DNA of 64,000 nucleotides from contig CAXHJY010001010.1 in assembly GCA_964016885.1 (NCBI GenBank), positions 1 to 64,000 on the forward strand, read 5' to 3'. Made by a program: the position numbers and the translations under genes. Positions 45,047-49,883 of the stretch are shown in pieces (the stretch's first letter is position 1; each line of letters starts with the position of its first letter). The notes under the pieces were generated by a model. The model did no database searches. It was given only the letters and a program-made list of their open reading frames with translations, and was not told the origin of the DNA. The DNA comes from Eledone cirrhosa. Its lineage: Eukaryota.

Positions 45047-45273
45047 TACATATGTATATATATATATATATATATATATATATATATATATATATATATA
45101 TATATGATATGTATATATATATATATATATATATATATATATATATGATATGTATATATATATATATATATATATATATATATATATACGTTATTCCGGG
45201 TTGAATCGGAGGTAACCACAGTAAGTAAGGTACTCAATACATTGCAGAGTATAAAAGTTTTAATATAGATGAG

Positions 45274-45320
45274 ATTCTACAGGACTAGAACTGTTTCATT
45301 CTTTAGAAATCATCAGGAAT
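45274..45320 (-). ncRNA. Type I hammerhead ribozyme in 135 bp module, copy 1 of 5
   Basis: auuc CUGAUGA u uucu aa agaa u GAAAC ag uucuaguc cu GUA gaau. Confidence 0.88.
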
Positions 45321-45541
45321 TTGTATATATATATATATATATATATATATATATATATATATACATACATATAAATATATATATATATATATATATATAT
45401 ATATATATATATATATATATATGTATGATATGTATATATATATATATGTATATATACGTTATTCCGGGTTGAATCGGAGGTAACCACAGTAAGTAAGGTA
45501 CTCAGTACATTGCAGAGTATAAAAGTTTTAATATAGATGAG

Positions 45542-45588
45542 ATTCTACAGGACTAGAACTGTTTCATTCTTTAGAAATCATCAGGAAT
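45542..45588 (-). ncRNA. Hammerhead ribozyme, copy 2 of 5
   Basis: Identical to 45274-45320. Confidence 0.88.
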
Positions 45589-46359
45589 TTGTATATATAT
45601 ATATATATATATATATATATATATATATATATATATATATATATATATATATATATATATATATACATACATATAAATATATATATATATATATATATAT
45701 ATATATATATAATATACATATAAATATATATATATATATATATATACACATATATATATATATATACATATAAATATATATATATATATATATATATATA
45801 TATATATATATATATGTGTGTATATATATATATATATATGTGTGTATATATATATATATATAAATGGAAAAGAATGAAACGAAATTTCATTTCTCAGTCT
45901 TAGTACGACTGATACTTAAATGTAAGTATGTATGAATACGTACATACATATATGTATACAAACGTACAGTAATATGTATATATATACATACATGCACACA
46001 TATATATATTTGTACGTACGGGTTTACCGAACATTTATTATAAAGTTCGGTTTGTTTGTTTGTAAACAAACAAACAGCCCGAATGACGCTTAAAGTTCGG
46101 TAAACCCATACGTACATATATATATGTTTGCATATACGCCTGTATACATATATGTATGTACATATACATACATACTTACATTTAAGTATCAGCCGTACTA
46201 AGAGCGAGAAATGAAATTTCGTTTCATTCTTTTCCATTTATCGTTTTCGGTGAGCCCGGCCGACTAACTCACTCGATATGCAAATTAAGCTGCTCAGCCG
46301 TTAATATGCATGTGGAAAGTATATACTTTCAGACATTCAATCATCTGGCAGGAAGTTAT

Positions 46360-46402
46360 ACGATGCTGACGATAGCTAAAAAGCTTGAAACTAGTACATC
46401 GT
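46360..46402 (+). ncRNA. Minimal hammerhead ribozyme (28942 family), intact
   Basis: acgaug CUGACGA u agcu aaaa agcu u GAAAC ua GUA caucgu. Confidence 0.88.
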
Positions 46403-47309
46403 TCATGTGTAAGTGTTGAACAAAAAGGCGACGATGGTTGCCTGAACACTGTAGGGCTTAATTCGGGCTGTTTGTTTGTTTACAAACAAACAAACCGAAC
46501 ATTATAATAAATGTTCGGTAAACCCATACGTACATATATATATGTGTGCATCTATGTATATATATACACTACTGTACGTCTGTATACATATATGTATGTA
46601 CGTATAAATACATACTTACACACACACACACACACACACACACACACACACATACACACACACACACACACACATATATATATATATATATATATATATA
46701 TATTTACGGCTGGAGAGAAATGAAGCAAGTATGCTCCGTTGGATGTGTAATGTCAATGTGCGTGAACGACCAAGCATAGACGAGATGAGAAAGAAACTGG
46801 GTATAAGAGGGATAAGTTGTGGTGTGCAGGAAAGAAGGCTGAGATGGTATGGACATGTGATATGCATGGAGCATCACCGCTGGTTAAAGGCGTGCGAAGA
46901 AATCCCAGTAGAAGGAAGACGCAGTAGATGTAGGCCACGTAAAGCATGGGCGGAGGTGGTGAACCCAGACCTCAGATCGCTGTAACTCAACGAGGAGAGG
47001 ACGAAGGCCCCTGACAAGTGGAGTGCTACTGTGCTGAATAGGACCCGTCCAACCCTTGTAAGCAGGGAAAAGCGGATATAAAATGATGATGATGATGATA
47101 CATATGTATATATATATATATATATATATATATATATATGATATGTATGTATATATATATATATATATATATATATGATATGTATATATATATATATATA
47201 TATATATATATATATATATATATACGTTATTCCGGGTTGAATCGGAGGTAACCACAGTAAGTAAGGTACTCAATACATTGCAGAGTATAAAAGTTTTAAT
47301 ATAGATGAG

Positions 47310-47356
47310 ATTCTACAGGACTAGAACTGTTTCATTCTTTAGAAATCATCAGGAAT
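47310..47356 (-). ncRNA. Hammerhead ribozyme, copy 3 of 5
   Basis: Identical to 45274-45320. Confidence 0.88.
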
Positions 47357-47569
47357 TTGTATATATATATATATATATATATATATATATATATATACAT
47401 ATAAATATATATATATATATATATATATATATATATATATATATATATATGTATGATATGTATATATATATATATGTATATATACGTTATTCCGGGTTGA
47501 ATCGGAGGTAACCACAGTAAGTAAGGTACTCAGTACATCGCAGAGTATAAAAGTTTTAATATAGATGAG

Positions 47570-47616
47570 ATTCTACAGGACTAGAACTGTTTCATTCTTT
47601 AGAAATCATCAGGAAT
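47570..47616 (-). ncRNA. Hammerhead ribozyme, copy 4 of 5
   Basis: Identical to 45274-45320. Confidence 0.88.
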
Positions 47617-48336
47617 TTGTATATATATATATATATATATATATATATATATATATATACATACATATAAATATATATATATATATATATATATATATAT
47701 ATATATATAATATACATATAAATATATATATATATATATATATACACATATATATATATATATACATATAAATATATATATATATATATATATATATATA
47801 TATATATATATATATATATGTGTGTATATATATATATATATAAATGGAAAAGAATGAAACGAAATTTCATTTCTCAGTCTTAGTACGACTGATACTTAAA
47901 TGTAAGTATGTATGAATACGTACATACATATATGTATACAAACGTACAGTAATATGTATATATATACATACATGCACACATATATATATTTGTACGTACG
48001 GGTTTACCGAACATTTATTATAAAGTTCGGTTTGTTTGTTTGTAAACAAACAAACAGCCCGAATGACGCTTAAAGTTCGGTAAACCCATACGTACATATA
48101 TATATGTTTGCATCGCCTGTATACATATATGTATGTACATATACATACATACTTACATTTAAGTATCAGCCGTACTAAGAGCGAGAAATGAAATTTCGTT
48201 TCATTCTTTTCCATTTATCGTTTTCGGTGAGCCCGGCCGACTAACTCACTCGATATGCAAATTAAGCTGCTCAGCCGTTAATATGCATGTGGAAAGTATA
48301 TACTTTCAGACATTCAATCATCTGGCAGGAAGTTAT

Positions 48337-48379
48337 ACGATGCTGACGATAGCTAAAAAGCTTGAAACTAGTACATCGT
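48337..48379 (+). ncRNA. Minimal hammerhead ribozyme (28942 family), intact
   Basis: Identical to 46360-46402. Confidence 0.88.
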
Positions 48380-49271
48380 TCATGTGTAAGTGTTGAACAA
48401 AAAGGCGACGATGGTTGCCTGAACACTGTACGGCGTAATTCGGGCTGTTTGTTTGTTTACAAACAAACAAACCGAACATTATAATAAATGTTCGGTAAAC
48501 CCATACGTACATATATATGTGTGCATCTATGTATATATATACACTACTGTACGTCTGTATACATATATGTATGTACGTATAAATACATACTTACACACAC
48601 ACACACACACACACACACACACACACACACATACACACACACACACACACACATATATATATATATATATATATATATATATATATATTTACGGCTGGAG
48701 AGAAATGAAGCAAGTATGCTCCGTTGGATGTGTAATGTCAATGTGCGTGAACGACCAAGCATAGACGAGATGAGAAAGAAACTGGGTATAAGAGGGATAA
48801 GTTGTGGTGTGCAGGAAAGAAGGCTGAGATGGTATGGACATGTGATATGCATGGAGCATCACCGCTGGTTAAAGGCGTGCGAAGAAATCCCAGTAGAAGG
48901 AAGACGCAGTAGATGTAGGCCACGTAAAGCATGGGCGGAGGTGGTGAACCCAGACCTCAGATCGCTGTAACTCAACGAGGAGAGGACGAAGGCCCCTGAC
49001 AAGTGGAGTGCTACTGTGCTGAATAGGACCCGTCCAACCCTTGTAAGCAGGGAAAAGCGGATATAAAATGATGATGATGATGATACATATGTATATATAT
49101 ATATATATATATATATATATATATATATATATATATATATATATATATATGTATGATATGTATATATATATATATATGTATATATACGTTATTCCGGGTT
49201 GAATCGGAGGTAACCACAGTAAGTAAGGTACTCAGTACATTGCAGAGTATAAAAGTTATAATATAGATGAG

Positions 49272-49318
49272 ATTCTACAGGACTAGAACTGTTTCATTCT
49301 TTAGAAATCATCAGGAAT
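49272..49318 (-). ncRNA. Hammerhead ribozyme, copy 5 of 5
   Basis: Identical to 45274-45320. Confidence 0.88.
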
Positions 49319-49883
49319 TTGTATATATATATACATATATATATATATATATATATATATATATATATATATATATGTACATATATACATATATACATAT
49401 ATATATATATATATATATACATATATATATATATATACATATATATATATATATACATATATATATATATACATATATATATATATATATATACACACAT
49501 ATATATATATATATACATATATATATATACATATATATATATATATATATATGTATATATGTATATATATATATATATATATATACATATATATATATAT
49601 ATATACATATATATATATATACACATATATATATATATATATATATATATATATATATATATATATATATATATATATATATACATATATATATATATAT
49701 ATATATACATATATATATATATATATATATATATATATATATATATATATATATATATACATATATATATATATATATATATATAAATGAAGTATTTCCG
49801 TCGGAAGGTACAGGAATAAAAGAGTGCTCTATGTAGGCTACAGAGCTTATTAGTTATGTAATAAACAACATAAGATAATTATT

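Follow-up and report, generated by a model that had tools for sequence, protein, structure and literature searches.

Five copies of a 135-bp module carrying a hammerhead ribozyme (HHR) on the minus strand were found in a 64,000-nt stretch of Eledone cirrhosa DNA (contig CAXHJY010001010.1), hereafter referred to as the window; all coordinates refer to this stretch, and the features described were read from its sequence. Our analysis indicated that the module is probably the 3′-terminal 135 bp of a Penelope-like element (PLE) of the Hydra clade, left by one heavily 5′-truncated insertion that was then copied locally at the DNA level. The anatomy of the module, the composition of the microsatellite tracts around it, and the distribution of variants among its copies carry this interpretation, and the alternatives are weighed below where the evidence bears on them.

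The module and its ribozyme

A BLASTN search of the whole window with the module returned the five copies (starts at 45189, 45457, 47225, 47485, and 49187; 0-2 differences from copy 1) and one relative at 2464 only. Module 1 (45189-45323, minus strand, as are all copies) has the layout of a PLE-like 3′ end, with 7 nt, the HHR core, and 89 nt past the cut site, and carries allele A at module position 49. Module 2 (45457-45591) carries G49, module 3 (47225-47359) shows no difference from module 1, and module 4 (47485-47619) and the unpaired module 5 (49187-49321) each combine G49 with one private change. The sites that vary within the module all lie outside the HHR, which is identical in 5/5 copies. 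Four of the copies form two pairs with periods of 268 and 260 bp, joined by interrupted (TA)n spacers of 133 bp (45324-45456) and 125 bp (47360-47484) that are alike in composition (A+T, 95-96%); Tandem Repeats Finder (TRF) reported a period of 260 with 2.5 copies. A reading made earlier from the letters alone (the sequence-only reading) had described five modules with an identical, complete minus-strand HHR about 3 nt from the edge and had placed the paired copies 268 and 260 bp apart; BLASTN and the motif descriptor agreed with the first statement, and the distances were the same when measured again. Its further statement that the modules are separated only by (TA)n held for two of the four junctions, whereas the remaining two (1633 and 1567 bp) hold an inverted-repeat element and the 3′ fragment of a long interspersed nuclear element (LINE). 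(TA)n flanks both sides of all five modules and of the 2464 relative. We rejected the possibility that the module is coding, as its minus-strand ATGs reach stops after a few codons.

The type I HHR of module 1 (45274-45320, minus strand), located by descriptor search and the same in all five modules, has a 4-bp helix I that begins 3 nt inside the module edge, a core formed by CUGAUGA at 45316 and GAAA, and a GUA cleavage triplet with the cut predicted after 45278. Helix II comprises 3 bp framed by U.U, and helix III comprises 4 bp with a quasi-palindromic strand and an 8-nt loop III. The module thus shows each part of the type I definition (CUGANGA/GAAA/NUH core, three helices, helix I open), with helices I and II shorter than in canonical HHRs. 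The HHR descriptor matched 10 sites in the window, half of them the modules, and had no match in 30/30 dinucleotide shuffles of the window. Rfam gave no match at the gathering threshold across the whole window and also missed its other PLE-type HHRs; at 45150-45650, its 36 matches up to E=10 included no hammerhead family and reflected microsatellite-driven noise.

The active fold of this ribozyme is predicted to be weak. In models that take no account of tertiary contacts, Mg2+, or assistance from protein, the HHR fold was 8.1 kcal/mol less stable than a competing hairpin in which downstream sequence pairs with the core (for the monomer, about 8-9 over the minimum free energy [MFE]). The corresponding gap for the four other HHRs of the window that could be scored was 5.5-10.1 kcal/mol (two further HHRs could not be fitted by the script), so this measure does not set the module apart. 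By plain folding, the module did not stand out in stability (z -0.6 to -0.7), and the structure returned was the core-sequestering hairpin. Poor in vitro cleavage has been described for PLE-type HHRs (PMC4209133), and the HHR of Poseidon requires protein (PMC11167929).

Anatomy of a probable Hydra-clade 3′ end

Read along its minus strand, the module runs from a Hydra-type HHR through 89 nt with a two-part signature to the adjoining (TA)n. The Hydra-like PLE ends elsewhere in the window follow the same order, with 101-160 nt between HHR and (TA)n (37 and 55 nt in inverted pieces). In the published tables for the clade, the distance from motif to 3′ end is 87-425 nt (median, 141) in 24/25 Hydra families (PMC8557442), a range that includes the 152 nt of the module; this comparison omits one family, for which only a 5′ copy is listed, and assumes that the tabulated position includes a 20-nt flank. 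The sense-strand HHR of the module also falls within the roughly 90-210 nt from the 3′ end expected for the clade. (TA)n is listed there as the preferred target for 26/27 Hydra families, and the module is likewise inserted in (TA)n. As counted by eye in File S2 of the same source, a short, U...U-framed helix II like that of the module is present in 14/25 Hydra-clade families and an ACAG/CUGU helix III in 4/25. The module therefore resembles the ends of Hydra-1_Obim, Hydra-2_Ajap, and Penelope-1_NV as given there in having a type I HHR near the 3′ end, a short helix I, a U...U-framed helix II, an ACAG/CUGU-type helix III, a similar HHR-to-end distance, and 3′ (TA)n. It differs from Hydra-clade PLEs in having no open reading frame (ORF), in its length of only 135 bp, in the lack of a sequence match to any named family in the material covered, and in its loop III (8 nt versus 1-3 nt in the published Hydra table). 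A truncated PLE end, which the sequence-only reading had set against its own proposal, is thus favored by the Hydra-clade anatomy and the (TA)n target.

The signature between the ribozyme and the microsatellite comprises two small hairpins on the minus strand. Hairpin A (45232-45250) is a CTC...GAG stem with a bulge and is common to the Hydra-like PLE ends at 14438, 16993, 27693, and 49845, and hairpin B (45190-45216) is terminal, contains ACCT(T)CC, and stops at the (TA)n junction. By eye, a hairpin resembling B can also be traced in the element at 49786-49947, though the MFE structure of that element differs. A two-part descriptor, written post hoc after the sequences had been viewed, matched nine minus-strand sites, namely the 5 modules, the 3 ORF-linked ends (14438, 16993, and 27693), and the 49845 end, and had no match in 100/100 shuffles. 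As a less circular test, a covariance model was built from these four ends with the module left out (an automatic alignment of whole 3′ ends had been set aside for misplacing the HHR cores); the modules ranked 1-4 and 6 among its 20 non-training matches, and a search targeted within the module gave E=0.0009 under a rough calibration. A CTC...GAG-like hairpin is also visible by eye in the published ends of Hydra-2_Amil and Hydra-2_Ajap (PMC8557442). No description of the two-part signature was found in the covered portions of that source or in a non-exhaustive literature search. We regard the signature as a candidate recognition or initiation signal for a Hydra-like reverse transcriptase (RT).

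Coding sequence of the clade is present elsewhere in the window. A protein search with an ORF piece of the window PLEs returned three ENA proteins, and P0001 and P0002, obtained in this way, contain RWK and DKT, the motifs by which the Hydra clade is defined (PMC8557442). They map to 14696-16760, 17463-17888, 27958-28688, 41387-42127, and 50076-50655, and tblastn placed nothing within 45189-49321. Pfam named only 2/10 ORF pieces, both below the cut-off, and left P0001 and P0002 unnamed, so that the Hydra assignment of the window ORFs rests on the motifs and on comparison by eye with Hydra-1_Obim. The module itself is non-coding and shows nothing of the clade's ORF (RT with RWK and DKT; C-terminal GIY-YIG without CCHH), and it can consequently only be a PLE fragment or derivative.

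The end of the module also finds a counterpart outside the clade. In Poseidon of Anolis (PAc), RT starts 111-118 nt into the ORF and the HHR cut lies at +26, which places the start 85-92 nt downstream of the cut, and the template is uncut RNA (PMC11167929). The insertion end of PAc therefore lies at nearly the same distance past the HHR cut as that of the module (89 nt), likewise beside a stem-loop and at an AT-rich target. PAc belongs to another clade, however, and its ORF starts at the HHR, where the module has no open frame.

Proposed local amplification and origin of the pairs

A ~2-kb unit is present three times in tandem at 43817-49321, between long (TA)n tracts at 43170-43816 and 49322-49785, and all five modules fall inside this triplication. 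Besides its module or modules, each unit comprises an inverted-repeat element, a LINE 3′ fragment tailed by (GAT)n, and a (TA)n tract. After microsatellite and indel columns were masked, the units differed from one another at 9/1127, 11/1124, and 2/1124 compared positions, the last value being that of units 2 and 3; unit 1 differs from both at 9-11 positions and by an indel cluster. The location of all five modules inside one triplication of near-identical units points to one insertion, not five, and makes the two pairs copies of each other. The LINE fragment shares 51% identity over 75 aa with the C-terminal end of an element at 13038-14346 that bears an RT, and it may belong to the RTE clade. 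Some or all of the copy number, whether the triplication or the pairs, could be false around a real PLE end, for example through alleles stacked across the long (TA)n during assembly. The near-identity of units 2 and 3 and the position of all junctions in (TA)n would suit such an error, but unit 1 stands apart from the other two, modules 4 and 5 have private changes, and the variants fit a consistent crossover history, so we consider an assembly artefact decidedly unlikely.

The composition of the spacers bears on how the pairs arose. In their left half they correspond to the beginning of the tracts to the right of modules 2 and 4 (the unit junctions), which resemble the end of the 43170-43816 tract, and in their right half to the left flank of module 5. 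The left (junction) marker occurs eight times in the 43170-43816 tract and not at all in the outermost right flank (49322-49785). The alleles follow the type of left flank, with G49 and one flank type in modules 2, 4, and 5 and A49 and another in modules 1 and 3. The spacer interruptions thus appear to have come from two local flanking tracts that fused, which argues for recombination at the DNA level rather than an RNA multimer; a multimer would be expected to place the left marker in the outer right flank, and the absence of the marker there counts against it. In the simplest history, an exchange across (TA)n would have removed what lay between two diverged 2-kb units, and the resulting pair would then have been duplicated. 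A local origin of the pairs, which the sequence-only reading had also named as the counter-explanation, is favored by this spacer make-up and by the missing marker.

A sequence of events consistent with these observations can be outlined for a truncated PLE end copied in place. The GIY-YIG endonuclease of a parent element, judging from the target preference of the clade, would have nicked a (TA)n tract behind the LINE tail. By analogy with Poseidon, RT would have begun in the element RNA ~89 nt past the HHR cut site, behind the two small hairpins, and the module boundaries suggest that copying continued back across the uncut ribozyme and halted 7 nt beyond the core. Shared variants suggest that the 2-kb block was next duplicated in tandem by unequal crossing-over between its bounding (TA)n tracts (43170-43816 and 49322-49785). 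A further exchange, in which (TA)n tracts from neighboring units took part, may have deleted the intervening sequence and brought two copies that already differed (A49 and G49) head-to-tail, and this pair would have been duplicated along with the block, as the same variants imply.

The sequence-only reading had instead suggested that the microsatellite may be part of a mobile RNA and could mediate priming at genomic (TA)n. Cast as a model, this would be a non-LTR (long terminal repeat) retrozyme whose monomer, consisting of the module and (AU)n, is excised by tandem HHRs, circularized, and reinserted as multimers, with (AU)n pairing to genomic (TA)n to prime. The geometry is sound in that minus-strand read-through with both HHRs cut would be predicted to yield an RNA of 268 or 260 nt, about half of it (AU)n. 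The pairs share with non-LTR retrozymes (PMC7229834; 10.64898/2026.07.22.740005) a head-to-tail arrangement, a complete type I HHR in each unit, a monomer of 260-268 nt with a G+C content of 20%, and derivation from a PLE; two or more successive units bearing such HHRs are expected of these retrozymes, and the spacing of the two complete HHRs falls inside the animal range of 170-400 nt (PMC7229834), in line with the TRF period. A retrozyme would also account for the sharp 5′ edge of the module. Quasi-palindromic helix III strands that pair in trans have been described for dimer-dependent PLE ribozymes (PMC4209133), and pairing of the helix III strand of the module in trans was predicted at -12.8 kcal/mol versus -1.4 kcal/mol as a hairpin, with the duplex forming part of the precursor MFE structure. 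The predicted probability of this duplex was just 0.13-0.33, however, and the double-hammerhead fold lay 14.4 kcal/mol above the MFE. The poor in vitro cleavage of PLE-type HHRs noted above also counts against excision, as does the finding that 8/9 Xenopus dimers tested were uncut (10.64898/2026.07.22.740005).

The spacer of a retrozyme would be expected to belong to the element and not to the target site, whereas half of the module-pair monomer is microsatellite that apparently came from the local flanks, its interruptions matching local tracts at one locus. Only dimers occur, at that one locus, each pair is a copy of the other, and the left marker is missing from the outer right flank. The one unlinked relative in the window, at 2464, has different TA flanks and no monomer structure. 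No retrozyme with a microsatellite spacer came up in the sources reached by our literature searches. The proposal that the microsatellite is part of the mobile RNA and primes at (TA)n found no support, and the spacer markers trace to local tracts; priming by complementarity is further disfavored by another PLE, in which initiation in vitro occurred at RNA sites non-homologous to the cut DNA (PMC11167929). The microsatellite appears to have been target and recombination substrate, not cargo, and we rate a mobile retrozyme as the least likely of the explanations considered. We also regard as very unlikely a minimal retrozyme composed of the Hydra-PLE ribozyme, the 3′ hairpins, and captured (AU)n, which would exist as circular RNA bearing a copy of the microsatellite it targets, be reverse-transcribed in trans by Hydra PLEs, and seed or lengthen (TA)n, with the present locus as an insertion or a snapshot of its birth, at which microsatellite recombination would just have set two PLE ends in tandem.

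Several observations weigh against a locally copied, truncated PLE end. Window-wide, the covariance model gave the modules nonsignificant E values of 0.43-1.2, a sequence-only profile of the three ORF-linked ends gave 1.6-2.9 for 3/5 modules (also not significant), and a profile that included the 49845 end matched no module. No coding parent with the 3′ end of the module was found in the window, and short-motif searches found no matching element in the searchable parts of the supplements to PMC8557442 and PMC13282606. The left spacer marker is not exclusive to the bounding tract, as it also occurs in the tracts at 37940 and 39817 (2 others of 25 examined on that strand). Finally, the 5′ edge of the module keeps the HHR complete with just 3 nt to spare, and in three short PLE pieces (the module, with its core at 45316, and those at 2464-2519 and 17950-18018) the 5′ edge falls close to the HHR core, at about -7 to +4 nt. 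Anatomy accordingly gives good support to assignment as a PLE end, and homology only moderate support.

Repeated 5′ edges near the core are not predicted by random truncation, and they keep alive the idea of a complete non-autonomous mini-element (HHR and 3′ recognition hairpins) with fixed ends, derived from a Hydra PLE and mobilized in trans, for which (TA)n would be only the target and the pairs would be recombinational. The coincidence of the module 5′ edge with helix I fits this idea, as does the relative 43 kb away with its unchanged helix III strand, and both non-autonomous PLE derivatives (MRC1; PMC8557442) and retrozymes derived from pseudo-LTRs (pLTRs) (10.64898/2026.07.22.740005) are on record. 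That relative (2464-2519, minus strand) lies between TA tracts, is cut short at both ends, lacks the CUG, and extends ~19 nt past the cut site; its loop II and the 3′ strand of helix I differ from those of the module, as do its TA flanks. It had been taken for a dispersed, deleted copy at about 2465-2515, and a diverged relative at that distance was indeed present, but it is truncated rather than deleted, as it aligns to the module HHR with no deletion. Being the sole unlinked relative in the window and having other ends on both sides, it indicates that a family exists, with variable ends as in truncated PLE copies (PMC8557442), rather than fixed ones. All five full copies also trace to one locus, and no promoter turned up, although no search for promoters was made. 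A mini-element is thus unlikely, and the clustered 5′ edges may reflect a stop or pause site of reverse transcription, or ascertainment.

Neighboring elements and significance of the locus

The window is rich in PLEs. On the minus strand at 49786-49947, an element with an HHR-like motif and the two-part 3′ signature ends in the (TA)n tract of module 5 and adjoins, in the opposite orientation, a Hydra-like ORF fragment (50076-50655, plus strand). Hydra-like PLEs in a degenerate state, with pseudo-LTR pieces and inverted 5′ pieces, occupy 14366-18018, 27621-28696, and 40068-43174, and each ends at or near TA runs. Other Penelope-like ORF remnants, unmatched by Hydra-type queries, lie at 23168-24987 (minus strand; weak RT and GIY-YIG Pfam matches) and 36341-37501 (plus strand; HHR at 37707). 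A second, different type I HHR is present once per 2-kb unit on the plus strand (intact at 46366 and 48343 and degenerate at 44322), with a dispersed copy at 28948; it has a 6-bp helix I, a U...U-framed helix II, and a palindromic loop III and sits in a non-coding element of ~770 bp whose arms are inverted (43814-44584; 28694-29189). This element may be a non-autonomous derivative of a PLE. Directly after the (GAT)n tail of LINE-like 3′ ends, a (TA)n tract is often found (7937, 12303, 62267, and 45033, among others). Two further ORFs on the minus strand may represent a Tc1/mariner-like transposase (18936-19901) and a CR1-like reverse transcriptase (38525-39780).

Invertebrate genomes are expected to contain truncated, ribozyme-bearing PLE ends in (TA)n, several of which occur in this window, so the module as we read it carries little weight by itself. 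The module and its pairs are a real feature that is probably ordinary, the module most likely being the tail of a known type of jumping gene with its usual self-cutting RNA. Were the microsatellite to travel in RNA after all, the locus would link retrozymes to microsatellite spread, a matter of specialist interest. Birth of non-LTR retrozymes from a PLE terminus, including by local amplification, has already been proposed in general terms in a preprint (10.64898/2026.07.22.740005); the present locus illustrates concretely how exchange between flanking microsatellites could, at the DNA level, turn a PLE end into a retrozyme-like dimer. It also calls for caution, as screens for tandem HHRs can score such pairs as active retrozymes.

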